Source of the DNA: Candidatus Micrarchaeota archaeon
GTDB lineage: Archaea > Micrarchaeota > Micrarchaeia > Micrarchaeales > CABMGC01
DNA length: 64,000 nt
NCBI GenBank assembly: GCA_021797745.1
Contig: JAJZZD010000001.1
Coordinates: 197,459 to 261,458 of the forward strand
Direction: 5' to 3'
The notes beneath the pieces are model-generated. The model did no database searches, was not told the origin of the DNA, and was given only the letters and a program-made list of their open reading frames with translations. Made by a program: the position numbers and the translations under genes. This document shows, in pieces, positions 6,614 through 58,185 of the stretch (positions are counted from its first letter, which is position 1; every line of letters starts with the position of its first letter).

Positions 6614-9280
6614 ATGCGAATACAGACAGCTCTCGAGTTCCTGCTCACGTATTCCTGGGCATTTGTGATAATAGGACTTGCTGTTGCCGTAGTGTTCCTG
6701 ACCATAATGAGCCCGATACAGGGCACAACCGTTTCGCCGTCATACTGCTACATAGAACCGTCACTTCCATGCTCGCAGGCCGCGATAGTGTCCAATTCAA
6801 ACTCAACCCAGTTCTACGTGGTATTCCAGAACAACCTCGGAATTACGATGCAATTCCAGTCTGATGCGTTGGAAGTTGTGCCTTCTATAAACCTAAACAA
6901 GAGCACCGGCAGCTGCTATCCGAGCACAGCGCCGCAGGGCGCAATAGTGACGTGCAATGCCACGATAAGCAGCAAACCAACGGCGCTTGGGGCGCAATTC
7001 AACCCCACATTCACTATTAACTACGAGCTGTGCTCACCTACCTGCGTAAAAAACACATACGGAACAACTGGCACGGCTGTGACGTTCTCTAGGCCTTTGT
7101 CTTCGTTCGTTTTAGTCAGTCTTTTCGTTAACCCTTCAGGTGCTGGCAAGGTCGCGCTCAACGGAGTTCAGTATCCGAGCGGGTCCAATGTGCTTCTGTC
7201 ACTCGGCACACACTACACGCTTTACGCAGTGAATAACCCCCGCTATACGTTCAGTTCCTGGGCGTGCAGCGGAACCGGCTGCTATTCGGGCTCTAACCAG
7301 ATGTTTACGCTAGTCGTCAACAACGCGATGACCGAGACTGCAGAATTCACATCTACTTCTTCTTCAACGTCTTCAACAACTTCTTCCACAGTTTCGTCCA
7401 CAACTTCTACAAGCACAACTTCGACCTCAACATCGTCCACTGCGACTACCACAGTTCCAAGCACTTACATCTACGCCGTAGGAAGCTACCCAAATGCCAG
7501 TGCTATTGGGTCCATGACTAACTCGACTTACTTTGCGGGGTTGGGAAGCGGCGGTATTGGCGCATGGACGCAGACCGCAACGCTTCCGATAAAATTCAAC
7601 CCAGGGCACGGATGCAACATATACAACAACTACATATATTGCGTCGGATTTGCGCCGACCGGAGGCAGCAACAACTTGTCCTTTTACGCTCCTATATCGA
7701 GTTCAGGCATAGGTTCATGGCAATCTACAACGCGCATTCCATATATAAACGGCAGCATAGTTGTCTTGATGAACAATCAAGGATGTTCGATATTCAATGG
7801 TTATATTTACTGCATTGGTGCAGAAACACAAGGAACTTACGTAAACATTTATGCTCCAGTTTCGAGTTCGGGAATCGGCGGCTGGTCTGAAACCTCTTCT
7901 TTTCCGAGCCAGACAGGAGGCGGATACGAAACTTCATGCGCAGTAAATCCAAGCTACATATACTGCGTCGGATTAGGTGGCTTCAACAACTCTTATTACG
8001 CCGGATTGGGGAGCTCTGGAATAGAAGCTTGGACAAAAACTACTCCTTACCCATTGGCGGCGACCGGTGGAGAAACGAGCTGCACGATTTACAACGGTTA
8101 CATTTATTGCATTGATTCTGGAGTTCAGCCGCACAACCAGTCATATTACGCTTCCGTGTCGAGTCAGGGGATAGGCGCCTGGGAAAAGACTACAAGTTAC
8201 CCGCTGGGTTCATCTAACAAACTGGACAGCATAAGCTGCGACATATACAACGGTTACATTTACTGCATTGGCGGGACCACGGATAATGTACATTCTGCAG
8301 CCTACTATGCTCCGGTTTCGAGTTCTGGAATAGGCAGCTGGCAAAGCACAACACAGTTCCCAGGCGGGCTCATCAATGCATGGGCCGAGGTATCAGGATA
8401 CGGAGGCGGTGGGCTGTTTAGCGGGGGAGGACTATCAACCGGAACTACCACAACTTCAACATCGACTAGCACAACAAGCACGTCATCCACATCGACGTCA
8501 TCCACATCGACGTCATCCACATCGACGACAGTAACGTCAACCACAACATCAACAACTACAACTACCAGTGTCACGTCATCTTCGACTTCAACTACAACTA
8601 CAATAACGTGGTCTGTTACTCTGTCATCCTCTGGTACACAGACCTGTGATAACCAAGTCGCATATCTTACAGCCACTGCAAGTCAAACAGTCACAGGTAC
8701 ACCATATGACATATTCATCTATAATGGCACCCATATCGTAGCGACTTGTACAACAGGAAGCACTTGCAGCTTTACCTTTGTTGCAGAAAGCCAGGCAGCT
8801 ACTATAAGTAGTTACTCTTTCACTGCAACAATCGGCAACAGTCAAAAAACTGTTGCAACAAGTAGTCAAGTCACTGAATTGACATATCCAGCAACAGCAG
8901 TAACTATAAGCAACACTAACGACCCATTTGCCGGTACCATATCACAAGTTTATAATTCAGGTAACAGCAAAGGAGTAATATCTACAGGAATAAGCGTTAC
9001 TGCTCAAGACTACTACTGTACTTCACAGAACCTTGTTAACGGAGCATGTACTTCTTGGACGTATGCCTCGGCTTCGCAGACAACAGATTCAAATGGTGCA
9101 TTTTCCATATCTTTGCCTTCGGGCGCAGAGATTGGAACATGGTGCGTTAATGCTACTTCGCAATCCCCTTATTGCTCGTACTTTCAGGATGGCGGCACTA
9201 CAAATACGAATCCGGCCGGTACTTATCCTGATGCTCCGACTATCTGCTTCACATATAGCGGGCCAGAAGTGCCTCCTTAA
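6614..9280 (+). CDS. large surface protein: class III (pilin-type) leader, B-repeat-like module, six Kelch-like repeats, two Ser/Thr linkers, C-terminal domain
   Basis: 888 aa. The N-terminus is MRIQTALEFLLTYSWAFVIIGLAVAVVFL. Six repeats have xYIYC[VI]G...YYAP[VI]SSSGIG.W..T (first and fifth blades deviate: YIYAVG, YIYCID). Poly-Ser/Thr tracts are coded at about 7345-7460 and 8440-8605. Confidence 0.85.
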   Translation: MRIQTALEFLLTYSWAFVIIGLAVAVVFLTIMSPIQGTTVSPSYCYIEPSLPCSQAAIVSNSNSTQFYVVFQNNLGITMQFQSDALEVVPSINLNKSTGSCYPSTAPQGAIVTCNATISSKPTALGAQFNPTFTINYELCSPTCVKNTYGTTGTAVTFSRPLSSFVLVSLFVNPSGAGKVALNGVQYPSGSNVLLSLGTHYTLYAVNNPRYTFSSWACSGTGCYSGSNQMFTLVVNNAMTETAEFTSTSSSTSSTTSSTVSSTTSTSTTSTSTSSTATTTVPSTYIYAVGSYPNASAIGSMTNSTYFAGLGSGGIGAWTQTATLPIKFNPGHGCNIYNNYIYCVGFAPTGGSNNLSFYAPISSSGIGSWQSTTRIPYINGSIVVLMNNQGCSIFNGYIYCIGAETQGTYVNIYAPVSSSGIGGWSETSSFPSQTGGGYETSCAVNPSYIYCVGLGGFNNSYYAGLGSSGIEAWTKTTPYPLAATGGETSCTIYNGYIYCIDSGVQPHNQSYYASVSSQGIGAWEKTTSYPLGSSNKLDSISCDIYNGYIYCIGGTTDNVHSAAYYAPVSSSGIGSWQSTTQFPGGLINAWAEVSGYGGGGLFSGGGLSTGTTTTSTSTSTTSTSSTSTSSTSTSSTSTTVTSTTTSTTTTTSVTSSSTSTTTTITWSVTLSSSGTQTCDNQVAYLTATASQTVTGTPYDIFIYNGTHIVATCTTGSTCSFTFVAESQAATISSYSFTATIGNSQKTVATSSQVTELTYPATAVTISNTNDPFAGTISQVYNSGNSKGVISTGISVTAQDYYCTSQNLVNGACTSWTYASASQTTDSNGAFSISLPSGAEIGTWCVNATSQSPYCSYFQDGGTTNTNPAGTYPDAPTICFTYSGPEVPP
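8481..8525. repeat. perfect 15-bp tandem repeat x3 (cgtcatccacatcga) inside the second Ser/Thr linker
   Basis: Read directly from the sequence: three identical consecutive 15-mers, in frame, encoding repeated STSTS-type units. Confidence 0.9.
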
Positions 9281-9871: not shown

Positions 9872-10444
9872 GTGAATCAAGGAAAGAATTACAGAAAGAA
9901 TTCCAACGCTAAGGCACAGTCGGCAATGGAATACCTGATGACCTACGGATGGGCGATTCTGATAATGGGTGTCGTACTTGCGGCACTATTTGCTCTTGGT
10001 CTCTTCAACGGCGGGATAGCAAGCTTCTCCGATACGTGCATAGCGATATCTGGTTTTACCTGCTCAGCTCCTGTCCTTCATAATGGTAACTTCACGGCCA
10101 CACTGGGTCAGGCAACAGGATCAGGATGGACTAGCGGCAACTTCATATTCGTAGTAGGAGGAGGGACGCCGACGAACACGATAGTCAGCGGCGGCAACAC
10201 AGTCGTTTCCGGATGCATAGCTTCTGCCGGAGCGCTTAACAGCGGCGGAACTATTTCTGCGACGTTCAACGTGATAGGACAGTTCAACACCACAACCGGC
10301 CAGTTGCGATGCACAGGAGGTCCGCTTTCAACGGCCATAGGGCATACGTACAGCGGTGCAATCTGGGCGATATACGTTTCTTCAAGTTTGAGCTCAGCGA
10401 CGCAGATACAGCAGGTAGCTACAGTAACACTTAAGGCAACGTAA
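9872..10444 (+). CDS. archaeal type IV pilin-like protein (class III signal peptide)
   Basis: 190 aa. The N-terminus is ...NAKAQSAMEYLMTYGWAILIMGVVLAALFAL, a canonical prepilin-peptidase-type leader plus hydrophobic helix. The remainder is Gly/Ser/Thr rich. GTG start. Confidence 0.85.
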   Translation: MNQGKNYRKNSNAKAQSAMEYLMTYGWAILIMGVVLAALFALGLFNGGIASFSDTCIAISGFTCSAPVLHNGNFTATLGQATGSGWTSGNFIFVVGGGTPTNTIVSGGNTVVSGCIASAGALNSGGTISATFNVIGQFNTTTGQLRCTGGPLSTAIGHTYSGAIWAIYVSSSLSSATQIQQVATVTLKAT

Positions 10445-12647: not shown

Positions 12648-12813
12648 GTAAATTCACCTAGCTGCCTTGTAAATGTCCTAGAACAAGGAATGCGAATTAT
12701 GATATGTTTCATAAGGTTTATTAGCTTTTTCGCGCCCCTCCTGCACGCCATGCGCACGCCGCATGTCACGTTTCCATCTTGTGACCGCGTTGTTATACAC
12801 AAATATTTATATA

Positions 12814-12848
12814 TTTATCTAAGTAAAATATATTTACTTAAGTAAATG
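12814..12848 (+). promoter_or_regulatory. AT-rich promoter region with two TAAGTAAA-containing half-repeats upstream of the translocation-like operon
   Basis: tttatctaagtaaaat (12814-12829) and ttacttaagtaaat (about 12834-12847) precede the ATG at 12854. The 16-mer recurs exactly at 63159-63174. Confidence 0.35.
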
Positions 12849-12853
12849 ATGTT

Positions 12854-13264
12854 ATGCAACAAGCCCGTGGCTCAAAAGGCGCAAGCCGCTCTGCCGTAGC
12901 GTTCATGTCAATCCTTTTCAGGATTCCCCTGCTAATGGCTCTGCTTCTCGTTAAGAGCGCCTACTCGTATTCTGGCACCGCGACGCATTTCTCAGCGCTT
13001 GACATAGTCACTACTCTAACTTCGATACAGGCAGTTCTTGCGCGCATAGGGCCGCTGCTCAGCGCCGTGCTTTTCATAGTCGCCGGGATATTCTACGCGC
13101 TAGGCCAGCTGTTTCCGCCCCAGAAAAGAGCGACTTTCCAGTCGACAGCATTCGACATCATAATCGGCGCGATAATAATAGCAGCGATATCAATAGCGTC
13201 AAACGGCCTTGCAGCGGCATCGACTAATTTGCTGTCAAACGTGACGGCAAACGTCATTTCCTGA
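12854..13264 (+). CDS. VirB2/TrbC/CedA1-like pilin candidate (signal-type N-terminus plus two hydrophobic helices)
   Basis: 136 aa. The basic N-terminus and hydrophobic leader end in ...LLLVKSAYSYSG. Helices IGPLLSAVLFIVAGIFYALGQLF and AFDIIIGAIIIAAISIASNGLAAA are joined by the loop PPQKRATFQS. The call is by architecture only. Confidence 0.55.
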   Translation: MQQARGSKGASRSAVAFMSILFRIPLLMALLLVKSAYSYSGTATHFSALDIVTTLTSIQAVLARIGPLLSAVLFIVAGIFYALGQLFPPQKRATFQSTAFDIIIGAIIIAAISIASNGLAAASTNLLSNVTANVIS

Positions 13265-13316
13265 GACTTCCCTGTAATCAGAGGTTTGCAATTCATCAAT
13301 ACCCTTAAGTGTTTGC

Positions 13317-14339
13317 ATGTCTGCTTTTCCATTCGGTGCTGGCGGCTATAGCATATGCGTACTCGTCATAAGCATAATGGTCGCAGCCGGGGGGATAATC
13401 CTCGGATTTGGCTATGTTTTTAACGACAAGCGGTTCAAGGAATTCGGCAAAAACGAGCTGGTGCAGAGCGCAATAAACGGGGCGCTTGTCGGCGGTTTCA
13501 TGCTCATGTTCGCAAACGGCGGCATAGTTACAACGGCAGTAAATTCACTGGCGTTGCAGAATGGCACTGCAGTTAACTGTCCAGGCGCCCTGTCAGCGAA
13601 CGCTGCCATATGCTTTGCGTATAACTATCTCGTGTCGCCGCAGCCGTACACGTTCATGGGCAGCACGAACATATCAGTGATGGACTACGTTATAATACTG
13701 ATGCCTGTGCTCTACCTTCTTTATGCCGTGCTCGGGCTGTTCAGCGTATTCCTGGCGCCAATTCTGTCTCAGATAAAGTACGTAACCCAGGCGCTGACCA
13801 CAGTGGCAATAAGTGCGTCAGTGCAGGCCGCAGTGCTGACATTCATAGCTGCCAGCACACTAACCCTGATACTGCCGACTGGCCTTCTGCTACGTACATT
13901 CCTTCCCACGAGAAAGCTGGGCGGATTCCTCATAGCGCTGTCAATAGGATTTTACGTGATATTCCCGCTGTCGTATGTTTTCAATGCGGCAATATTGAAC
14001 AGCTACTCTTTGTCTGCGTACAACTCCACAAACGAGGTCACGCTAATGTCTTCAAACATACAGAACACTGCATTGCAGGACTACAACTCCACGCGTATCG
14101 TGAGCCAGGCTGCCAACCAGAGCGTGCAGGAGGCGCTGCATCCTTTTTCGTCGTTTGCGAGCGACATCGTCAATGCAATGTTCGGCTTCATGCAGAAGAT
14201 ATTCAACCTCATCGCCTTCCTTATACTTTATGCGTTCATACTGCCCGTTTTCAGCCTTGTGATTACCGGCATATCAATAAGGGAACTTTCGCGGCTTTTC
14301 GGCTCCGAAGGCATTAATTTCAAGTTGGGGGTGGTTTGA
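13317..14339 (+). CDS. polytopic membrane protein (about six TM segments), VirB6/TrbL/CedA-like by position and topology
   Basis: 340 aa with repeated long hydrophobic stretches, for example VMDYVIILMPVLYLLYAVLGLFSVFLAPIL and IFNLIAFLILYAFILPVFSLVITGISI. Its stop abuts the next start. Confidence 0.5.
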   Translation: MSAFPFGAGGYSICVLVISIMVAAGGIILGFGYVFNDKRFKEFGKNELVQSAINGALVGGFMLMFANGGIVTTAVNSLALQNGTAVNCPGALSANAAICFAYNYLVSPQPYTFMGSTNISVMDYVIILMPVLYLLYAVLGLFSVFLAPILSQIKYVTQALTTVAISASVQAAVLTFIAASTLTLILPTGLLLRTFLPTRKLGGFLIALSIGFYVIFPLSYVFNAAILNSYSLSAYNSTNEVTLMSSNIQNTALQDYNSTRIVSQAANQSVQEALHPFSSFASDIVNAMFGFMQKIFNLIAFLILYAFILPVFSLVITGISIRELSRLFGSEGINFKLGVV

Positions 14340-15047
14340 ATGAAATCAGTTTCCGATAAAATTTTTGCATACCTTTTTTATTCAGCATCGCTGGCAGTTC
14401 TTCTTGCTTATGCTTATGCGCAGAATCTGTATCTGCTGGCGTTTTCTTCGATGCTGCTTGCCCTGTCAGCCATTTACCTCAATGCGGGCAGCATTGTCAA
14501 CAATATGCTGTTCAGGCGCCAGCTCGTATCAAACCACAGCGGCGTATACGCCCTCGACATGGATATGAAGTCTGCGGTTAAGGACATTGGCAGCGGCTTC
14601 AGGGCGGTGTCTGCCGCAAGGTTGCTGCTGAAAGAAGAAATAAGCTCAGAAAAGATAAGCGCCGCGATTGCCAAGGCCGAGCTGCCTTTCGAGTACATAG
14701 TGCGGCTGCGCAACATAGACGCAAGGCGCTTTCTCGAAGGCCTGGAAACTAGGAAGAGAATGAAGGAAATAGCAATAGCTAAGACTGACCCAAAGCAATA
14801 CGCGAAGCTCAACGCAGCCCGACGCGAACTCGAAGCCATAAAAAGCGAGATGAATAAAGTGTCGGGTTCAAGACCTACTGAAATAGAAGTGGTATTGCGC
14901 GCATTCGCAGAGAATCTAGACGCGCGCACTGCAGCGCGCGAGTCCCGCTCATGCCTCGAAAACATGGTCGTATTGTTTTCCGGAGCCATAGACTTCGAGT
15001 GCGAAATGTTAAACGGCCAGGACCTGCTTGATGAAATCGGTGATTGA
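14340..15047 (+). CDS. membrane-anchored protein (N-terminal TM hairpin plus soluble helical domain), possible VirB3/VirB4 N-terminal part
   Basis: 235 aa. The TM hairpin is IFAYLFYSASLAVLLAYAYAQNLYLLAFSSMLLALSAIYL. It ends with a TGA immediately followed by the ATPase ORF. Confidence 0.5.
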   Translation: MKSVSDKIFAYLFYSASLAVLLAYAYAQNLYLLAFSSMLLALSAIYLNAGSIVNNMLFRRQLVSNHSGVYALDMDMKSAVKDIGSGFRAVSAARLLLKEEISSEKISAAIAKAELPFEYIVRLRNIDARRFLEGLETRKRMKEIAIAKTDPKQYAKLNAARRELEAIKSEMNKVSGSRPTEIEVVLRAFAENLDARTAARESRSCLENMVVLFSGAIDFECEMLNGQDLLDEIGD

Positions 15048-16208
15048 TTGGAGTCGCGCTTTGCAAACATCTATCCCGCCTCTGACGCAGCAAAACTGCT
15101 CCGCGCTCCCGTAAGGAAGATTCCGCGCGCAGCGCAGTTTTTGTCCTCTTCCATGCAATGCGTGTTCTTAGGATGCACGACCTCCGGCAGTATGCCTTAC
15201 TTCCTTGACTTCGGGGAATTGATGAACCCGCACATATTCATTTGCGGGATGACTGGCAGCGGAAAAACTTTCCTGATGAAGAACCTTATGGTTAAATTGA
15301 ATCTTTTCTCAGAGGCCGCGCTCGTAATACTGGATTTCACAGGCGAATACGCAGAATTCTCTGCCATGGCAAACGGCTTGCCCACAGGATTTGCCGAAGT
15401 TAAGGACTCGCTTCTGCAGAATAAGCATTCAATATTGTACGTAAGCCTAACGCAGATAAATTCTGATGCAGAAAAGGCAGATGCCGCATCGCGCGTTCTT
15501 GAGCAGGCAGTTTCCTACATGAGGCATTCCATATGCAGCGGCGTAAGGCTGTTCGTGATGCTCGATGAGGCATGGAAGGTTATAGGAAATACGCCGTCAT
15601 TCGAAATTCTTCTCAGGGAGGGTAGGAAATACGGCACCGGATTGATACTTGCTTCGCAGCTGATAGAAGACGTCAGCTTTTCAATGCTTAACAACGTAGC
15701 AACCATCTTCGTATTCAGGCTCCAGAACAAAACAGTTCTTGACAGGCTGGCACAGAACTATCTGCTCAGCCAGGAGCACGTCAATGCAATACAGAATTTT
15801 ACGCAGGGCAACTGCCTAGTTTTGCAGGTCTGCAAATCTGGTGAGAAAAGGTCCTTTTCAATCAAGAAGGTTGCAGGCATAGAACTTGAGCGCGTTTTCA
15901 GGATATCGTTAGGTGTAGGCATGTTGGAGATAGAAGAGACAAGGTTCGAAAATGCGATAAGGAATCTGTGCGGCCAGAACTGCTCGGAGATAATCAGGGT
16001 TCTCAGGGAACGAGACACAGTTGAGCTTAGCGACCTTATCGTGCTGCTTGTCAAGGGCGGTGCAGACCGTAGAGAGCTACTTGTCGGTATGCGTAAACTC
16101 GGAGTAGGCGATTCTGAGCTGGCAGAAGCTTTCGCGCGTGCGGTTTCCGCGATAGATAAAGGCACACGGCATGAACGGGATGTTTCACAGGATGTTTCAA
16201 ATGTTTAA
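15048..16208 (+). CDS. VirB4/HerA/CedB-like P-loop ATPase (FtsK-HerA superfamily)
   Basis: 386 aa with Walker A ICGMTGSGKTFLMKNL, Walker B FVMLDEAWKV, then LREGRKYGTGLILASQLIEDV. The start is uncertain: TTG at 15048 or ATG at 15153. Confidence 0.75.
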   Translation: MESRFANIYPASDAAKLLRAPVRKIPRAAQFLSSSMQCVFLGCTTSGSMPYFLDFGELMNPHIFICGMTGSGKTFLMKNLMVKLNLFSEAALVILDFTGEYAEFSAMANGLPTGFAEVKDSLLQNKHSILYVSLTQINSDAEKADAASRVLEQAVSYMRHSICSGVRLFVMLDEAWKVIGNTPSFEILLREGRKYGTGLILASQLIEDVSFSMLNNVATIFVFRLQNKTVLDRLAQNYLLSQEHVNAIQNFTQGNCLVLQVCKSGEKRSFSIKKVAGIELERVFRISLGVGMLEIEETRFENAIRNLCGQNCSEIIRVLRERDTVELSDLIVLLVKGGADRRELLVGMRKLGVGDSELAEAFARAVSAIDKGTRHERDVSQDVSNV

Positions 16209-16902
16209 AAACGGCACAGCTATGAAAATAAAGAGCAAGAGCCTGCTGTTCAGCAGGCTATGCATAGACGCCAGGCTTGCATCAAGCATGCGAGCCGTGG
16301 AAAAGACGCTCTCCTTTTTTCCCAATCTTTCACAGACGCGCACAGGCGGCAAGCTGTGCTATTATATGTCAAACGGCGATCCCGACTGCTTTTACCTTCT
16401 TGAGTTGGGCAGGGATGCAATTTTCATGTCAATATGCTCAGTCTCGTCGCCCACGTACTACCTGAATGACGCGCTTCTGAAACTGCTCGAAATAATGCAC
16501 ATGCTAAATTCAGACTATGAGATTTATGCTAACAGCCTTTACCCTTATCTTATCTTCGCGCTCTCGGGTATGCAGATTGAAAAATATTCCAATATTCTTA
16601 ATAAGAACGAAGCATGCCGCTTAGACCGCGATGCAGACCTGATACTTGCCGGCAGGATAAATTCCCTTGTAAAAGAGAAAGAGGCGTACAAAGGCATCAA
16701 CAGCAGGGCGATGGAAAGAATAGAGTGCCTCACTGCGAAATTGCTTGTATTTGAAAGCAGGTCTGACCCCAGCGTAAGCCGCATTTCGAAGAGCCTGGGG
16801 CTTGAGGCTGAAGAGCTGAGAAAAATGCTGTTGCGCATGCCCAGATTCGGGTACAAAGCCATTTACAAGACCTCCGACGCTTTCGAGCTGGTGAAGCTAT
16901 GA
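16171..16902 (+). CDS. hypothetical protein (operon member, no recognised family)
   Basis: 243 aa, overlaps the end of the ATPase gene. Alternative in-frame starts run up to 16222. The C-terminal segment SVSRISKSLGLEAEELRKMLLRM could be a helix-turn-helix, which is speculative. Confidence 0.5.
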   Translation: MNGMFHRMFQMFKNGTAMKIKSKSLLFSRLCIDARLASSMRAVEKTLSFFPNLSQTRTGGKLCYYMSNGDPDCFYLLELGRDAIFMSICSVSSPTYYLNDALLKLLEIMHMLNSDYEIYANSLYPYLIFALSGMQIEKYSNILNKNEACRLDRDADLILAGRINSLVKEKEAYKGINSRAMERIECLTAKLLVFESRSDPSVSRISKSLGLEAEELRKMLLRMPRFGYKAIYKTSDAFELVKL

Positions 16903-17519
16903 GCTTTTCGTCGTTTTTCTCGTTTGCCGCCCCGCTTGTTCCAATAGCCCTGGGCATGTCAGCGTTCCTGTTGCTTAGGCGGCTCCGCATCGGCGGGAAA
17001 AAGTTCAGGATACGGACAGAACCGCGGAAGGAGACGACAGATTCTTCCAGGGCAAAAGACAGCAGCATGCGCGAAATGGTTGACACGCTGCAGAAATATT
17101 TCGTATGCAGGCTGCCTGTCAGGAGTTCCGAGCTTCGGGAATACAACGGCATATGCAATGCCCATGGCGAAAAGTTCTTCGGGAATTTCCGGGACATGAG
17201 GCACGCAATATTTCTACGCGAGGCCTATGACTCGCTGATGATTGGGGGCTACGCCGGAGACGCGCTGAGCAGCATGTCATGCGGCAGGGGAATATGCGAC
17301 CTGGCATTCGACAAGCTTGGCCTTGTAGACATCCGCGACAGGCAGCTGGCGCTGCGTTTCAAGAATAACTACAAAAGCCGCATAACGATTTTCGCGCGCT
17401 CTAACGAAGAATTGCTCAGGGTGCTGTTTTCAAACAGAAAAGAGTCTGCGATAATCATGGCATACCTTGCAGATTATAAAATAGATATTTTTGATTCACA
17501 TGATAAACATGATAACTGA
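16899..17519 (+). CDS. hypothetical protein with an N-terminal TM helix (operon member)
   Basis: 206 aa: MSFSSFFSFAAPLVPIALGMSAFLLLRRL then a soluble region. It has an ATGA overlap with the preceding ORF. Confidence 0.5.
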   Translation: MSFSSFFSFAAPLVPIALGMSAFLLLRRLRIGGKKFRIRTEPRKETTDSSRAKDSSMREMVDTLQKYFVCRLPVRSSELREYNGICNAHGEKFFGNFRDMRHAIFLREAYDSLMIGGYAGDALSSMSCGRGICDLAFDKLGLVDIRDRQLALRFKNNYKSRITIFARSNEELLRVLFSNRKESAIIMAYLADYKIDIFDSHDKHDN

Positions 17520-17709
17520 CATTTTCCTTGGCTTCGCAAAGTTGGCCATAGCGTTCAGCGGGCTTGCGGCAAGCGCAATGATGTGCCTAGTTATAGGAAA
17601 GCAGCTTTCATCCCGCGATTTCCAGTTCGGCGTCACTTTCGTAAAGGAAGCCCTTTGCTTCTCATTCGTTTTCCTTATTTCATTCATTATTTTCCTGGCG
17701 TTTCGATGA
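17500..17709 (+). CDS. small two-TM membrane protein (CedA1/A2-sized)
   Basis: About 69 aa: MINMITDIFLGFAKLAIAFSGLAASAMMCLVIG...ALCFSFVFLISFIIFLAF. It overlaps the end of the previous ORF. Confidence 0.45.
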   Translation: MINMITDIFLGFAKLAIAFSGLAASAMMCLVIGKQLSSRDFQFGVTFVKEALCFSFVFLISFIIFLAFR

Positions 17710-17981
17710 GGGACCTGAGAAGCATATACAAACGCAGAGGCGATGCCCAGGCAGCGCTAGTTTATTTGAGTTCTTCCCTTGGATTTGTCTCGGCCGGATT
17801 TTCGTTCATGTACCTGGCATTCAGGGCCATTCCGCTGCCAGTTGCGGCTTTTGCAGCGGCAATCATTATGCTCTTAACGCATTTTGCATGCAAGAACAGC
17901 GAAGCGTCGAGTGCCATCATTGTAGTATCAGCAGCGTCAATAAATATCGCCATATTCATTACACTCTACCTTCTGTTCTAA
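17706..17981 (+). CDS. small multi-TM membrane protein
   Basis: 91 aa from ATG at 17706, with an ATGA overlap with the previous stop: MRDLRSIYKRRGDAQAALVYLSSSLGFVSAGFSFMYLAF...IIVVSAASINIAIFITLYLLF. The 5-prime extension in the ORF track looks non-coding. Confidence 0.45.
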   Translation: MRDLRSIYKRRGDAQAALVYLSSSLGFVSAGFSFMYLAFRAIPLPVAAFAAAIIMLLTHFACKNSEASSAIIVVSAASINIAIFITLYLLF

Positions 17982-18198: not shown

Positions 18199-19476
18199 AT
18201 GGCAGAAAAACCACACCTGAATTTGATCTTCATAGGTCACATAGCACACGGAAAGTCTACTACAGTAGGAAGGCTGATGTACGAGAGCGGAGCAGTTAGC
18301 GAGCAGGAGCTTAACAAACTTAAAGACGAAGCCAAGAGGCTGAACCTGGCAACGTTCGAGTTCGCATATGTCATGGACGAGCTTAAGGAAGAGAGAGAAA
18401 GAGGGCTTACAATCGACATAGCGCACAAGGAATTCCAAACCCCGAAGTATTATTTCACAATCATAGACGCGCCTGGCCACAAGGACTTCGCAAAGAACAT
18501 GATCACTGGAGCCAGCCAAGCAGATGCTGCAGTTCTTGTAGTCTCGATGGCTGAAGGAGAAAGAATCCAGCCTCAGACCAGAGAGCACGCTTATTTGGCA
18601 AGGGTTCTCGGAATCCCGCAGATAATAGTCGGAATGAACAAGATAGACCGAATCAATTACGACAAAGCGCAATACGAAGAAGTCAAAGCGCAGGTAGGAA
18701 CTCTATTGAAGACAGTAGGATATGATATTTCCAAGGTTCTTTTCGTACCTTATTCTGCACTGCAGGGAGACAATGTATCAAAGCCTTCTGATAAAATGTC
18801 GTGGTACACCGGGCCTACTCTTATAGCGTCGCTCGACACGCTGACAGTCCCTCCTAAGCCAACAGAGAAACCTCTAAGGCTTCCTGTACAAGACGTTTTC
18901 AGCATATCTGGATTCGGGACAGTTCCTGTGGGAAAGGTGGAGACTGGCGTAATGAAGCCAGGGGACCCAATTATTATAATGCCCGCCGGAATAAAGACGG
19001 AATGCAAGAGCATAGAAATGCACCACAAGCAGCTGCAGAAGGCAGAGCCTGGAGACAACATAGGATTCAACATAAAAGATGTGGACAAGAAAGACGTGCA
19101 CAGAGGCGATGTAATAGGCCCGGCAAGCAACCCGCCAAGCGTGGCACAGGAATTCACTGCGCAGATAGTGGTGATCAACCACCCTACTGCAATAGCCCCT
19201 GGCTACACACCGGTAGTGCACATACACACTGCTCAGGTCGCATCTACAATAACTGAAATACTCGAAAAGAAGGACCCTAAAACTGGCCAGACCCTGCAAA
19301 AGAACCCTGAATTCATAAAGACTGGAGACGTTGCGGTCGTAAAGGTAAGACCGTCGAAGCCTCTTGTAGTGGAGAAATTCAGCGACTTCCCGCAGTTGGG
19401 ACGATTTGCAGTAAGAGACATGGGCCAGACTGTTGCAGCAGGAGTCGTACTTGACGTGGTAAAGAGGACGGCTTAA
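18199..19476 (+). CDS. tuf: translation elongation factor EF-1 alpha
   Basis: 425 aa with GHIAHGKST, DAPGHKDF and NKID GTPase motifs and full-length EF-1alpha similarity. Confidence 0.97.
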   Translation: MAEKPHLNLIFIGHIAHGKSTTVGRLMYESGAVSEQELNKLKDEAKRLNLATFEFAYVMDELKEERERGLTIDIAHKEFQTPKYYFTIIDAPGHKDFAKNMITGASQADAAVLVVSMAEGERIQPQTREHAYLARVLGIPQIIVGMNKIDRINYDKAQYEEVKAQVGTLLKTVGYDISKVLFVPYSALQGDNVSKPSDKMSWYTGPTLIASLDTLTVPPKPTEKPLRLPVQDVFSISGFGTVPVGKVETGVMKPGDPIIIMPAGIKTECKSIEMHHKQLQKAEPGDNIGFNIKDVDKKDVHRGDVIGPASNPPSVAQEFTAQIVVINHPTAIAPGYTPVVHIHTAQVASTITEILEKKDPKTGQTLQKNPEFIKTGDVAVVKVRPSKPLVVEKFSDFPQLGRFAVRDMGQTVAAGVVLDVVKRTA

Positions 19477-35566: not shown

Positions 35567-35899
35567 TTAATGTCCAAGGCGCCGATTTTGATCATTCACT
35601 GAACAAACTGTCCGGTTCTTTCTATGTTCTACTCTTAGCAAATACGATTTAGTACCTTCAACGGCATAAATCAATCTATATGGTTTAATGTAAACTATTC
35701 GTTCGCTTTTCAAATCAAATCTTAATGGCTTGCCAATGTCAGGATTTTCTACTATTTTTGCTATCTGCTTTTTGATTCTTTCTTTGAAAGAACTATCTTT
35801 CAGTTTCCTTACTTCTTCTTCTTTGAAAGAACTATCTTTCAGTTTCCTTACTTCTTCTTCGAAAGTATTAGTCCAGATAACTTCCGTTATAGCTACCAT
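35567..35899 (-). CDS. RelE/ParE-family toxin carrying an in-frame 13-aa tandem duplication
   Basis: 110 aa: ...FEEEVRKLKDSSFKEEEVRKLKDSSFKERIKKQIAKIVENPDIGKPL...YRLIYAVEG... Confidence 0.7.
   Translation of the reverse strand: MVAITEVIWTNTFEEEVRKLKDSSFKEEEVRKLKDSSFKERIKKQIAKIVENPDIGKPLRFDLKSERIVYIKPYRLIYAVEGTKSYLLRVEHRKNRTVCSVNDQNRRLGH
35782..35859. repeat. perfect 39-bp tandem duplication (2 copies) inside the RelE-like gene
   Basis: ctttgaaagaactatctttcagtttccttacttcttctt occurs at 35782-35820 and again at 35821-35859. Confidence 0.9.
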
Positions 35900-36165
35900 G
35901 TTGCCAGCTCCTTTAGGAAAGCATTCTTGCTTAGTTTATGGGAGTTGCCTGCTTCTATCTCACTCCAGGCCTTTCTTGCTTCTTCTAACTCCTCTAAATC
36001 TTCCTTAAGGATGGGATTATCGATTCTTTTTAGCAGAATAACCCTGCCCGTAGCCTTTAGTGCGAATAGTGTACCTTCCTTTATCTTCAATTTTGCCCTA
36101 ATTCTTTTAGGCAGTACAATCTGACCTTTTGAACTCATTTTAGTTACTTCAACTTCTGTTTCCAT
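35893..36165 (-). CDS. AbrB/MazE/SpoVT-family antitoxin
   Basis: 90 aa with KMSSKGQIVLPKRIRAKLKIKEGTLF. It overlaps the toxin start by 7 nt. Confidence 0.75.
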   Translation of the reverse strand: METEVEVTKMSSKGQIVLPKRIRAKLKIKEGTLFALKATGRVILLKRIDNPILKEDLEELEEARKAWSEIEAGNSHKLSKNAFLKELATW

Positions 36166-36278
36166 AATAGTAAGATAATCTTACTGATATAAAAATATAT
36201 GCCAACATGCGTCCCACGTCACGCGAGGATTAGTTTTAGCGCCAAATGATAGTATTTATGTCTAGAAATTAATCTACT

Positions 36279-36536
36279 TTACAGTAATTTATTGAATTCG
36301 TCTACTGACAAATCAACTTCTTTTATTATAGTCCTTACCATACCTCTTCCTATTGGCCTGTGCGCAGGAACCACAATCACGTTTTCAGGATTCCTTTCTC
36401 CAAAAACAGAAATATACTTGCCTTTGTTGTCAAGTTGCATTACAATATGACTACCGCGCTGATGGTTAATGACATATCCAATACTGACCAAAGCTTTGAG
36501 TACTTTATCATAGTTCAGAGGCAGAAGCCTAGACAC
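36279..36536 (-). CDS. hicA: HicA-family toxin
   Basis: 85 aa: ...KVLKALVSIGYVINHQRGSHIVM...VPAHRPIGRGMVRTIIKEVDLSVDEF. Confidence 0.7.
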   Translation of the reverse strand: MSRLLPLNYDKVLKALVSIGYVINHQRGSHIVMQLDNKGKYISVFGERNPENVIVVPAHRPIGRGMVRTIIKEVDLSVDEFNKLL

Positions 36537-36744
36537 TTACCTGCACCATCTCAACAGGGATAGGATCTCCGTGCTTTTTCAACGATTCAAGATATGCTTG
36601 TATTGCCTCTTTAACATTCTTCATAAGCTCTTTCTTGGTCTTACCCTCAGTCGCGCATCCTGGCAAATCAGGTACTTTAGCCACATACATGCCGTCTTCG
36701 TCTTTTTCCACTATTACTGTGAATCTAATTGTCATTGTTACCAT
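36529..36744 (-). CDS. hicB: HicB-family antitoxin (UPF0150-like)
   Basis: 71 aa: FTVIVEKDEDGMYVAKVPDLPGCATEGKTKKELMKNVKEAIQAYLE. It overlaps hicA by 8 nt. Confidence 0.7.
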   Translation of the reverse strand: MVTMTIRFTVIVEKDEDGMYVAKVPDLPGCATEGKTKKELMKNVKEAIQAYLESLKKHGDPIPVEMVQVSV

Positions 36745-55754: not shown

Positions 55755-56960
55755 ATGACAAATGACAAGCTTAACATATCTGTGATAGTCCTGGACACTA
55801 TGCGCGCTGACATATTTTATGACATGCTAAAAAAAGACAGGAGTTCAGTGTTCTCGGAATTTTACAAAGTGGAAAAATGCATATCGCCTGAATCGTGGAC
55901 GCTTCCTGCACATGCATCTCTTTTCACAGGCATGTACCCGAGCCAGCATGGCTGCCACGAAAGCAGAACTGTAAAAGCCCTTGACATAGAACAGATAAAG
56001 CTAAGGAAAAAAACAATAGTGACTGAGTTAAAGAACAAAGGCTACAAAACCTACGGGATTTCGGCAAACCCTTATCTGCATCCAGTCTACGGATTTGATG
56101 AATTCGATGTTTTCAAAGAGGAATCTTATTTTACCGACAACTTCGGCAGCGTGTTCGAGGTATCAGAAAAGCTTAAGCCCCTGATTGCGAAATACAGGAA
56201 CGTTTATGGCGCAAATGCCCTGAAAATATCGATAGCGATGCTTAAAGAAGACCCTAACCTATTCCTAGAAACTGCAGCCACAAGTCTGTTTCCCACTTTC
56301 ATGTCGGTTTTCAAAAAGTTGAAGGCAAAGGCCATAGAAGGATGGCCTCTGGAAAAGGGCGGTAAGAATATAGTGAAAAACATAAAGGAAACGAAATTCA
56401 AAGAGCCTTTCTTCCTTTTCGCCAACTTCATGGAAGCGCACGAGCCGTATGTAGGCAAGAAAGGCAAGGACTTCAACTGGCCTACTCCTTTCATGATAAA
56501 AAAAACAGAACCCGAATTGGTACGGCTCTGGAAAAAGCTTTACATCAAGGCGTCTAAGAAAGCATACAATTATGGAATAAAAACCGCCGAGACGTTGCTC
56601 AGCAGGTTCGGGGAAAATCAGATGATAATAATCACTTCTGACCATGGTCAGTGTTTCGGAGAGCACGGATTCATAGGTCACGGCACAATGCTGTATGACG
56701 AAATCGTAAGGGTGCCGCTCATTATCCATATTCCAAGTTCTTTCAGGTCAGAAAAGTCAAAGCAGTCCTCATCGCTCGTCAACATAAAGCAGTTCATCAT
56801 GTCTGCGCTTGGCGGGGAGGAAAATGCCGCTGCGAAATTATACAGCAAAGAGGTTTTCGCGCAGAGTTTCGGGATACCTGCAAACCTGTCTGGCATAAAG
56901 GGAATAGACAAAAACAAGGTAAGGGCAGGCGAAACAGTGAAAACTAGGAAATTCAAATAG
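55755..56960 (+). CDS. alkaline-phosphatase-superfamily hydrolase (sulfatase / nucleotide pyrophosphatase-like)
   Basis: 401 aa with VIVLDTMRAD, SWTLPAHASLFTGMYPSQHG (Thr at the nucleophile-like position) and ITSDHGQCFGEHG. Confidence 0.7.
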   Translation: MTNDKLNISVIVLDTMRADIFYDMLKKDRSSVFSEFYKVEKCISPESWTLPAHASLFTGMYPSQHGCHESRTVKALDIEQIKLRKKTIVTELKNKGYKTYGISANPYLHPVYGFDEFDVFKEESYFTDNFGSVFEVSEKLKPLIAKYRNVYGANALKISIAMLKEDPNLFLETAATSLFPTFMSVFKKLKAKAIEGWPLEKGGKNIVKNIKETKFKEPFFLFANFMEAHEPYVGKKGKDFNWPTPFMIKKTEPELVRLWKKLYIKASKKAYNYGIKTAETLLSRFGENQMIIITSDHGQCFGEHGFIGHGTMLYDEIVRVPLIIHIPSSFRSEKSKQSSSLVNIKQFIMSALGGEENAAAKLYSKEVFAQSFGIPANLSGIKGIDKNKVRAGETVKTRKFK

Positions 56961-58185
56961 CATTCACTATTCCTATTCCGCAGAACGCGCCGCCGCTGTA
57001 TAAAATGAATCTTCCGAGTTCCCTTGTGACGTCGTAATTTTCGACAGGAATTTTCCTGCTAATTAAAATTTCCGCATTTACTGCCTCTAAGAAACGCGGT
57101 TTTGTGCTTTTTTCTTTTTCTCCGGTTACAGTGTTGAGTACATTGCTGATTTTGATCCATTTGCAGCCTATGTCTATTCCGTTGAATTTAATCATTAGTT
57201 TATTTCCTATTTTCCCAGTCACAAAAATCAGCGATTTCAAGGAATCGGTTATCCTGGGCTTGTCGTTTATGCTCGATATCACTGTTCCTCTTAATTCTGA
57301 ATTTATTTTATTGCTTAAAGCCAGAGCAACATTTTCTCCTACTTCTGCATTTTTTACTTTTTTACCTTTAACTGTAATATCTTTAGCAATCGCTTCCTCC
57401 CCTATAGGTTCGAACACCAGCTTTTCGCCGGTTTTCAAACTTCCTGACACTATTTTGCCCGCGACCAGCTTATTTTCTGCATCAAGAGCTCCCTGCACAA
57501 TTATTCTGAGAGGGCCTTCCTTTTTCTCTTCTTCAGATTTCGCGTTGGCATAGAGCGCCTCTAGAAGGGCATTTCCTTTATACCACTTCATATTGCTGCT
57601 TTTTTTAACAAGATTTTCCCCTTTGTATGCAGAAATAGGGACAAAATTAACATTCTCTTTTGAAAATCCAATTTTTTCTATGAAGGTCATTAAGCCTTTT
57701 TTTATGTTGTCAAACGTTTCCTTGGAATATCCCGCAAGGTCCATTTTGTTTACCGCTACGATGAGTTTGTTTATGCCGAGCATCCTCGCTATGAACAAAT
57801 GCCTTTTTGTCTGGTCCTTTATTCCTTCGCCTTTCTTTGCAGATACGAGCAGAAGGGCAATTTCTCCATAAGAGGCTCCACTTATCATGTTTTTTATTAG
57901 TTCTTCGTGACCAGGCACATCAATGAGGGCGAAAGCAAGGTCTTTGTGCTTTATCTCCGCTCTTGTTGTATCAATTGTCATTTCGTTTTCTCTTTCTTCA
58001 GAAAAACTATCCAATATGAATGCCGGTTCAAATCGTTTGTGCAACTTTTTGCTGTAAGTTTCTGCCTCCTGCATTCTGACTTTTGTTGCAGCCCCTGTCC
58101 GCATAAGCAGACTTCCGATTAAAGTTGATTTTCCATGGTCTTTATGGCCTAACAATGCAATGTTAATGACTTTCAAGTTAATCAC
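56953..58185 (-). CDS. cysN: CysN-like GTPase (sulfate adenylyltransferase subunit 1 / EF-1alpha paralogue)
   Basis: 410 aa with GHKDHGKSTLIG, DVPGHEELIKNM and VNKMDL. It lies immediately downstream of the cysD-like gene. Confidence 0.7.
   Translation of the reverse strand: MINLKVINIALLGHKDHGKSTLIGSLLMRTGAATKVRMQEAETYSKKLHKRFEPAFILDSFSEERENEMTIDTTRAEIKHKDLAFALIDVPGHEELIKNMISGASYGEIALLLVSAKKGEGIKDQTKRHLFIARMLGINKLIVAVNKMDLAGYSKETFDNIKKGLMTFIEKIGFSKENVNFVPISAYKGENLVKKSSNMKWYKGNALLEALYANAKSEEEKKEGPLRIIVQGALDAENKLVAGKIVSGSLKTGEKLVFEPIGEEAIAKDITVKGKKVKNAEVGENVALALSNKINSELRGTVISSINDKPRITDSLKSLIFVTGKIGNKLMIKFNGIDIGCKWIKISNVLNTVTGEKEKSTKPRFLEAVNAEILISRKIPVENYDVTRELGRFILYSGGAFCGIGIVNAI

Follow-up and report, generated by a model that had tools for sequence, protein, structure and literature searches.

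The closest described relatives of the system treated here are Ced and Ted, two domesticated type IV secretion systems (T4SSs) that combine VirB2-, VirB6- and VirB4-like components and have no relaxase (PMC9905601). Ced is found in Sulfolobales and Desulfurococcales (CedA, CedA1, CedA2, CedB, CedD and CedE) and Ted in Thermoproteales (TedC, TedA and TedB), and the authors of the Ted study noted that such domestication was unreported elsewhere (PMC9905601). CedD, a paralogue of CedB, is essential for DNA import in Saccharolobus, and both CedB and CedD had previously been classed in the HerA clade (PMC11868833). Here we describe an operon of eight genes, termed O1 to O8 in the order of the strand, in a stretch of 64,000 nucleotides from a Candidatus Micrarchaeota archaeon (contig JAJZZD010000001.1 of assembly GCA_021797745.1, positions 197,459 to 261,458), which we call the window. 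We consider it likely that this operon derives from a T4SS machine of the Ced/Ted kind, is fixed in the chromosome and inherited vertically, and is a signature of the DPANN phylum Micrarchaeota; this degree of confidence applies to the identity of the machine alone and not to its cargo. The identification is drawn from the pilin matches of O1, the predicted fold of O2, the relation of O3 and O4 to CedB, the CedD-like ATPase of relatives, and the conservation of the whole as one non-mobile unit.

Relatives were collected by a scan with an ATPase profile, taking one genome per species, which gave 80 loci as the best of 184 confirmed relatives. Gene counts per locus come from iterative hidden Markov model (HMM) searches over all open reading frames (ORFs) of 84 loci.

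Pilin, channel candidate and motor proteins

The O1 protein begins with a signal-peptide-like leader of about 38 residues that ends in KSAYSYSG, followed by two hydrophobic helices linked by the basic loop PPQKRATF. The window protein itself matches the Pfam family PF18895 (T4SS_pilin) with an E-value of 0.0036 and 17.8 bits, under the Pfam cutoff of 26.6 bits. At the level of the O1 family, 28 of 52 members match PF18895 (best E-value 3e-7) and 21 of 52 match PF04956, the TrbC/VirB2 family (best E-value 1e-6). The top match of the family profile among PDB sequences is TrwL (8s6h, E-value 0.013), the VirB2 pilin of plasmid R388, and this alignment runs across the helix-loop-helix. Within the family the mature domain is conserved and the leader is variable, and one deep lineage has an 81-residue form with no leader. 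The leader is thus present or absent by lineage, and both processed (Ted-like) and unprocessed (Ced-like) pilins would therefore exist. At three loci (L068, positions 6748-7975, as well as L071 and L081), O3-O4-O5 are preceded by three pilin paralogues in tandem, all of them with a leader and with cysteines; no O2 homologue was detected at these three loci.

The O2 protein has six to seven hydrophobic segments, a long helical hairpin and an outward loop, the first one, in which two cysteines (C88 and C99) are invariant throughout the family. None of 63 family members matches Pfam, and the O2 profile, compared with PDB and Pfam, returned an ABC-transporter helix match alone, which we judge to be spurious. 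An AlphaFold2 (AF2) model of O2 was obtained with a predicted local distance difference test (pLDDT) score of 83 and a predicted template modelling (pTM) score of 0.75. In a Foldseek search of this model against PDB, the top two neighbours are both TrwI/VirB6 of R388 (8rt9_F and 8rtd_L, with probabilities of 0.95 and 0.90), and the probability for every remaining neighbour is 0.28 or lower. The fold match of the model thus favours VirB6-type membership for O2, short of proof. The family comprises 2106 representative clusters at an E-value of 1e-3 or below and, among the matches listed, every named member comes from Micrarchaeota.

The next two proteins appear to share the role of one motor. 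O3 consists of an N-terminal transmembrane hairpin and a cytoplasmic domain of about 185 residues, and its gene, wherever it was found, lies directly 5' of O4. Residues 18-218 of the O3 family consensus align to positions 7-205 of the 590 positions of the CedB model, with an E-value of 2.2e-6. Consensus sequences of O3 clades match the VirB4-family model at positions 126-242 of 894 (E-value about 2e-3), and four to five single members match the CedB or VirB4-family model, even though O3 has no ATPase domain. The O3 profile returned coiled-coil noise alone from PDB and Pfam, a word-index homologue search with O3 returned the query itself alone, and by hhalign O3 showed no relation to the N-terminal domain of the second ATPase described below.

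The O4 protein carries a Walker A motif (GMTGSGKT), a Walker B motif (MLDEAW) and the motif REGRKYG...ASQ, and in Pfam it matches the DUF87/HerA central domain, TrwB_AAD_bind and AAA_10. For its orthologues, CedB is the best NCBIfam model in 33 of 33 cases, with defence-type HerA and VirB4-like models next. O4 aligns to the CedB model from position 251 on, the start lying between 251 and 315 among the orthologues. The AF2 model of O4 (pLDDT 89) has mixed neighbours, by PDB sequence as well as by Foldseek, namely HerA, EccC, STIV B204 and viral packaging ATPases, and VirB4. Just about 55 residues precede Walker A, and in the model these form short elements alone before the P-loop core; neither the sequence nor the AF2 secondary structure of O4 includes the N-terminal barrel of HerA. 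Because O3 covers the N-terminal part of CedB and O4 covers position 251 onward, we read the two together as a CedB-like protein (transmembrane segments, N-terminal domain and ATPase) that is divided over two genes, and the comparison across loci indicates that the division is ancestral.

In the window, O3 and O4 adjoin with zero spacing in one shared frame, and a single TGA separates them before the TTG start of O4 (15045-15050). In other genomes they overlap and are read in different frames, and for this reason we take O3 and O4 to be separate proteins and not a read-through fusion. In the public annotation O4 begins at an internal ATG and has 338 residues; since homologues of about 370 residues align from the TTG start, this call is probably truncated by about 48 residues, with the true start at TTG 15048.

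A second, soluble ATPase of 676-855 residues is encoded on the same strand, 3' of the operon, in 36 of the 84 loci (for example, L003 10790-13027 and L006 11861-14113). It has a Walker A motif of the form GxPGTGKT and a Walker B motif LEEAQ, and its best curated match is CedD. Its ATPase domain and that of O4 are related (hhalign probability 91.5), and in hhalign comparisons among all operon families this is the single related pair. One locus (L058) has a third ATPase of 574 residues about 5.7 kb 3' of the operon, at 15832-17556, which matches the CedD, CedB and VirB4 models with E-values of 1e-16 to 3e-11, better than O4 does.

A first-pass annotation of the window, made from the sequence itself, had proposed that O1 is a VirB2/TrbC-type pilin, O2 a VirB6-like protein and O3 with O4 a VirB4/CedB-like unit. 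The family matches and TrwL bear out the first of these assignments, the two TrwI/VirB6 neighbours agree with the second, as a weak match, and the agreement of CedB as best model with the colinear O3 consensus upholds the third. Its further statement, that the ATPase belongs to the HerA/VirB4 clade, stands for the FtsK-HerA superfamily, the DEAW Walker B motif and the RK-containing motif; a firm placement with VirB4 over HerA did not follow.

Operon layout, conservation and chromosomal setting

The eight ORFs are densely packed on the plus strand at 12854-17981, as read from the window sequence. TGA is directly followed by ATG at the O2/O3 junction (14337-14342), and ATGA overlaps join O5 to O6 (16899-16902) and O7 to O8 (17706-17709). 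An AT-rich tract that lies 16-48 nucleotides 5' of the O1 start codon is promoter-like for an archaeon.

Features of the operon, with positions in the window and the number of loci that have a homologue
Feature	Position	Strand	Loci (of 84)	Basis
TATA-like AT-rich tract, TTTATATATTTA (12806-12817) and AAAATATATTTAC (12826-12838)	12800..12838	+		Direct reading
O1, VirB2/TrbC-type prepilin (putative), 136 aa	12854..13264	+	70	Pfam family matches, TrwL, topology
O2, VirB6-like polytopic membrane protein (candidate), 340 aa	13317..14339	+	71	AF2 model and Foldseek
O3, putative membrane-anchored N-terminal module of split CedB/VirB4-like ATPase, 235 aa	14340..15047	+	79	Consensus against CedB/VirB4-family models
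O4, FtsK-HerA superfamily P-loop ATPase, 386 aa, TTG start	15048..16208	+	84	Pfam, NCBIfam, AF2
O5, soluble core component, 243 aa as called	16171..16902	+	76	Locus conservation, weak winged-helix matches
O6, clade-specific, one N-terminal transmembrane segment, 206 aa	16899..17519	+	42	Homologues, hydropathy
O7, small membrane protein, two transmembrane segments, 72 aa	17491..17709	+	23	Homologues, hydropathy
O8, small membrane protein, 2-3 transmembrane segments, 91 aa	17706..17981	+		Positional counterparts in about 20 loci

Gene order and strand are constant across the loci, and absent members are mostly due to contig ends. The order O1-O5 is kept in about 80 Micrarchaeota loci. From these counts and the constant order, O1-O5 are read as a phylum-wide core and O6-O8 as a clade-specific tail. 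We also regard O1-O7 as genuine genes and not chance ORFs, since homologues of each recur, in an unchanged order, in dozens of genomes; O8 has positional counterparts. One of the 80 loci is a weak bacterial match, and all others carry the label Micrarchaeota, uncultured archaeon or Marsarchaeota; the cultured Microcaldus variisymbioticus ARM-1 is among them, as is a complete chromosome of 853 kb. Likewise, homologues of the operon proteins are nearly all labelled Micrarchaeota, Micrarchaeia or Micrarchaeaceae, with a few Marsarchaeota labels and one bacterial label. The same DNA is present in metagenomes of acid mine drainage, mine tailings and sediment. In ARM-1 (AP024486.1; L057 6963-11137) the operon has six genes, which encode a 100-residue pilin with no long leader and then proteins of 333, 242, 397, 176 and 143 residues; it is flanked by NAD kinase/helicase genes and by a P-type ATPase gene.

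O5 lies directly 3' of O4 in 76 of the loci. Its homologues have about 225 residues, which makes ATG 16222 (226 residues) the more likely start. The protein is soluble and is made up of an N-terminal domain with no recognised family, a coiled coil and a winged-helix-like C-terminus. The C-terminal 50 residues of the O5 profile give weak but consistent winged-helix matches in PDB (2xvc, E-value 0.002, and proteins of the DeoR, FadR and Lrp types), and Pfam gave no consistent family. The homologues of O6 invariably follow O5, and the window protein has no family match in Pfam or NCBIfam; those of O7 follow O6, and O7 itself probably starts at an internal ATG, 17500 or 17509. No sequence match to O8 was obtained by phmmer or jackhmmer. 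However, about 20 loci have, after O7, a hydrophobic ORF of about 92 residues with an N-terminal motif ending in IYKR-like residues, a counterpart of O8 by position. These counterparts suggest that the plus-strand O8 is a real gene, whereas the public assembly leaves it uncalled and has a 65-residue ORF on the opposite strand instead, at 17762-17959 (-).

The GC content of the operon is 49.4%, compared with 43.8% in the rest of the window, which places it first among 236 sliding windows of equal length. At third codon positions (GC3), the operon genes range from 0.52 to 0.63 and most neighbours from 0.50 to 0.59, with one distant gene at 0.37. The excess is mild and arises in part from tight packing without AT-rich spacers. 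A foreign origin, considered on account of the GC content, was rejected, as GC3 is near that of the neighbours and the operon is phylum-wide.

The surroundings were examined through the precomputed Pfam annotation of all called genes in the window and its 10-kb flanks, on the matching contig DAHWHL010000006.1 (GCA_027335715.1, about 434,037-498,036). This region encodes ribosomal proteins, tRNA synthetases, A-type ATP synthase, EF-1alpha, S-adenosylmethionine synthetase and the like, together with two toxin-antitoxin pairs, and none of its genes is annotated as an integrase, a relaxase or VirD4/TraG. A single tRNA gene lies about 20 kb 3' of the operon, and none adjoins it. A tblastn search with O4 against 72,556 plasmids gave 14 weak, partial matches, all bacterial, and a scan of viral contigs gave five short P-loop matches alone; neither returned a close relative. 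Across the loci the operon is flanked by housekeeping genes that vary by lineage, the upstream arrangement of dph2 and rpl10e being common to 16-19 loci and the downstream tuf being found in this genome alone. On the strength of conservation in about 80 genomes and of flanks that are housekeeping and partly syntenic, the operon is judged to be chromosomal ('domesticated') and inherited vertically, a feature in common with Ced and Ted.

The ORFs, overlaps and motifs listed in the first-pass annotation were all found in place, and the cluster is indeed richer in GC than its surroundings, by the mild excess given above. The same annotation had taken the genes for a chromosomal apparatus rather than a conjugative element, and the conserved order, the varying housekeeping flanks and the lack of relaxase, integrase and VirD4 genes agree with this; the larger integrated plasmid that it had envisaged as a counter-case, with relaxase and VirD4 just outside the window, was not found within 10 kb. 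Its eight-gene order is conserved as O1-O5 in about 80 loci, with O6-O8 confined to one clade. Similarly, its description of the four downstream proteins as lineage-specific fits the clade-restricted O6-O8 but not O5, which is part of the phylum-wide five-gene core.

Several neighbouring genes deserve mention in their own right. At 9872-10444 (+) lies a gene for a 190-residue protein whose signal peptide (…QSAMEYLMTYGWAILIM…) is of the archaeal class III (type IV pilin-like) kind. Orthologues occur in the flanks of 19 loci, 15 of which show the order pilin-like gene, dph2, rpl10e, operon. This gene may specify a linked second structure resembling a type IV pilus, as Ups pili accompany Ced, or it may equally reflect plain synteny. 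Further upstream, an ORF of 888 residues (6614-9280, +; 883 residues in the public call) has an unusually high GC content at second codon positions (0.59), no Pfam match and no homologue in any related locus, and may encode a lineage-specific surface protein. The two toxin-antitoxin pairs, HicA/HicB-like and MazE/ParE-like (about 35567-36744, -), lie between a Na+/H+ exchanger gene and housekeeping genes and are the sole mobile-element-like genes of the window. Besides tuf at 18199-19476, the window has a second gene for an EF-1alpha-like GTPase (56953-58185, -; 383 residues as called, with GTP_EFTU and GTP-eEF1A_C domains).

Proposed mechanism and alternative explanations

By homology, O1 would be a prepilin whose Sec-type leader is cut near SAYS/YS to give a membrane-embedded, two-helix VirB2-like pilin of about 97 residues. 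O2 would provide the membrane platform or channel, with the long helical hairpin and a disulfide-bonded loop directed outward. O3 would tether the O4 ATPase, presumably a hexamer, below the O2 platform, the two products jointly standing in for single-chain CedB/VirB4. ATP hydrolysis would then drive the extraction of pilin and its polymerisation into a pilus or tube, the threading of a substrate via O2, or both. O5, which is predicted to be cytoplasmic with a winged-helix-like end, is a candidate adaptor for a DNA substrate or a candidate regulator; O6-O8 would be clade-specific membrane accessories, and in many relatives the CedD-like second ATPase would join the machine. The probable product of such a machine is a pilus or channel for the passage of DNA or other molecules from cell to cell. 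Because the tested archaeal relatives (Ced) move DNA, the likeliest cargo by analogy would be DNA that is imported from, or exchanged with, a neighbouring cell, an assignment that we make tentatively and at somewhat less than an even chance.

Several observations weigh against the identification as a Ced/Ted-like machine. The match between O2 and TrwI is weak in absolute terms (E-values of 0.14-0.23, TM-scores of 0.37-0.43 and a root-mean-square deviation of about 11 Å), and the link between O3 and CedB is made of consensus sequences and a few weak single matches. The NCBIfam scores of O4 are far under the curated cutoffs (59 versus 700 bits for CedB), HerA-type proteins rank first for O4, above VirB4, by both PDB sequence and fold, and O4 is not placeable in the VirB4 or CedB clade over the HerA clade. 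The homology between the pilin and the N-terminus of the channel, as in CedA1 and CedA, was not seen here by hhalign. The window has no CedD-like second ATPase, although CedD is essential in Sulfolobales, and HerA-NurA, Rad50 and ParA/VirC1 genes are not linked to the operon, unlike in Ted loci. Moreover, the machine is known here from its genes alone, and the metatranscriptomes of the same study have no reads of the organism.

The same machine might instead serve the interaction with a host, as a conduit of the episymbiont for proteins, lipids, nucleotides or other molecules and as a counterpart of the patescibacterial T4SS. We regard this role, the foremost alternative, as unlikely, though it deserves serious attention, and what speaks for it is above all the phylum-wide conservation of the operon, among housekeeping genes, in strongly reduced symbiont genomes and the lack of any linked DNA-repair or DNA-damage genes. 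The T4SS of Patescibacteria is likewise chromosomal, has VirB2-like pilins recognised by PF18895, is mostly relaxase-less, and is reportedly required for epibiotic growth (PMC12102498), and the VirB2 gene arrays of that group resemble the tandem pilins of the three loci described above. In addition, where ARM-1 touches its host, cryo-tomography revealed a barrel-shaped complex of 21 nm, unidentified as yet, in the envelope of the symbiont (PMC11329633). By contrast, Ced and CedD, which are the nearest relatives to have been tested, move DNA, and the predicted winged-helix-like domain of O5 fits DNA binding. The nanotubes associated with ARM-1 were ascribed to the host and not to the symbiont (PMC11329633); we considered the operon as the source of these intercellular tubes and did not adopt it, as their lumen is also wider than that of VirB2-type pili. 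A broader version, in which the operon is a phylum-wide, vertically inherited DPANN channel that exchanges DNA, nucleotides, lipids or proteins with hosts, as the counterpart of the patescibacterial T4SS, seems to us rather improbable. If true, the operon would correspond to pili-like connections or envelope docking complexes seen in cryo-tomography of symbiont-host contacts, and Patescibacteria, the candidate phyla radiation (CPR), and DPANN would each have independently domesticated conjugation machinery as a lifeline of the episymbiont.

The remaining explanations depart from translocation or from the T4SS altogether. To build a filament takes at least a pilin, a platform and an ATPase, and neither a coupling protein nor a relaxase was found; both points would suit an operon that makes a VirB2-like filament for adhesion or aggregation with no translocation. 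This we hold to be a slim prospect: all VirB2-type filaments that we know of so far belong to translocation systems, the conserved soluble O5 and the second motor ATPase of relatives suggest substrate handling, and the genome already has type IV pilin-like adhesion proteins, one of them 2.4 kb upstream of the operon. Nor do we give much weight to a HerA/FtsK-type ATPase complex outside the T4SSs, acting in repair, segregation or defence, whose resemblance to VirB2 and VirB6 would be due to chance. In PDB, O4 comes closest to HerA proteins of defence and repair systems, by sequence and by fold, and its Pfam match to the DUF87/HerA central domain points the same way. However, O4 has no HerA barrel, and NurA, Sir2, DUF4297 or another HerA partner is not found in the neighbourhood of the operon. 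Three independent partners indicate a T4SS, by the pilin HMMs, by VirB6 as the top fold and by the colinearity of O3 with CedB, and CedB and CedD were themselves once put in the HerA clade; we therefore think this explanation very improbable. As to the view that the operon is left over from, or a module of, an integrated conjugative plasmid, the GC content slightly above that of the surroundings and database entries that label the ATPase a 'conjugative DNA transfer family protein' would be in keeping with it. It is largely refuted and the least credible of all, given the absence of integrase, relaxase and VirD4 from the window and its 10-kb flanks and of an adjoining tRNA, the phylum-wide housekeeping settings with partly kept upstream synteny, a GC3 in the host range, and the lack of close relatives on plasmids and viral contigs.

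Comparison with known systems

In public annotation the ATPase is named 'HerA domain', 'ATP-binding' or 'conjugative DNA transfer family', and its partners are each a 'hypothetical protein'. No prior description of the system in Micrarchaeota or DPANN was found among open-access papers and bioRxiv preprints. If the identification as a Ced/Ted-like machine is correct, domesticated conjugation machines, experimentally documented only in Crenarchaeota (Ced and Ted), would extend to DPANN. To our knowledge, obligate DPANN episymbionts have no known molecular apparatus for exchange with a host. The ARM-1 orthologues are named candidate genes in a cultivable organism, the resemblance to Patescibacteria suggests a common solution to the episymbiotic lifestyle, and the divided motor and the conserved winged-helix-like subunit would be informative on how minimal T4SS-like machines are built.

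Import or exchange of DNA between cells has been demonstrated for Ced and Ted, and Ced is induced by DNA damage. Like the present operon, Ced is chromosomal and has no relaxase; its pilin is VirB2-like with two helices, its VirB6-like protein is polytopic and its HerA/VirB4-like ATPase is associated with the membrane. Among curated models, CedB scores highest for O3, with its N-terminal part, and for O4, with its ATPase part; relatives have a CedD-like second ATPase, and the small extra membrane proteins may be compared to CedA2. However, no component is at the level of an orthologue, by the bit score of O4 against CedB, and neither O1 nor O2 has a match anywhere in NCBIfam, no direct comparison with CedA or CedA1 having been made. 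Here the ATPase is divided over two genes, most lineages have a pilin with a cleavable leader, unlike the unprocessed CedA1, and the relation between pilin and channel is not detected. All genes are in one operon, together with the conserved winged-helix-like O5, and neither UV or DNA-damage genes nor Ups pili are tied to it; the host is a DPANN episymbiont, whereas the hosts of Ced are free-living hyperthermophiles. Ted, compared by its description, is a minimal chromosomal set of pilin, channel and ATPase in which the pilin gene is also directly 5' of the channel gene and the pilin also has a signal peptide, cleaved in Ted by signal peptidase I. The difference lies in TedB, which is a full-length VirB4, and in the ParA/VirC1-like, HerA and Rad50 genes that often accompany Ted loci.

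The T4SSs of Patescibacteria share with the operon a widespread, chromosomal and mostly relaxase-less occurrence in ultra-small episymbionts, as well as VirB2-like pilins recognised by PF18895 and pilin arrays in some lineages. They are bacterial, derive from a monoderm conjugation class, and have a full-length VirB4 together with VirB3-, VirB6- and VirB8-like parts, whereas the Micrarchaeota system is archaeal and has a divided CedB-like motor and other accessory proteins. With conjugative T4SSs (R388 Trw and Ti VirB/D4) the operon shares a homologous pilin, TrwL being the top structure, probably the VirB6-like fold of the O2 model, and an ATPase with a DEAW Walker B and an RK...Q motif. It differs from them in that VirB1, B5, B7, B9, B10 and B11 were not recognised (VirB3 and VirB8 were not specifically searched for), that VirD4, a relaxase and a mobile element are absent, and that the archaeal envelope has a single membrane. 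The HerA ATPases (HerA-NurA, HerA-Sir2 and HerA-DUF4297) are the closest solved structures and sequences for the core of O4, which differs from them by having neither the N-terminal barrel nor a nuclease or effector partner, its partners being membrane proteins of the T4SS kind. In sum, what is known is the parts list of Ced and Ted, and what is new is the lineage, the motor divided in two, the arrangement in a single operon and the additional core subunit.

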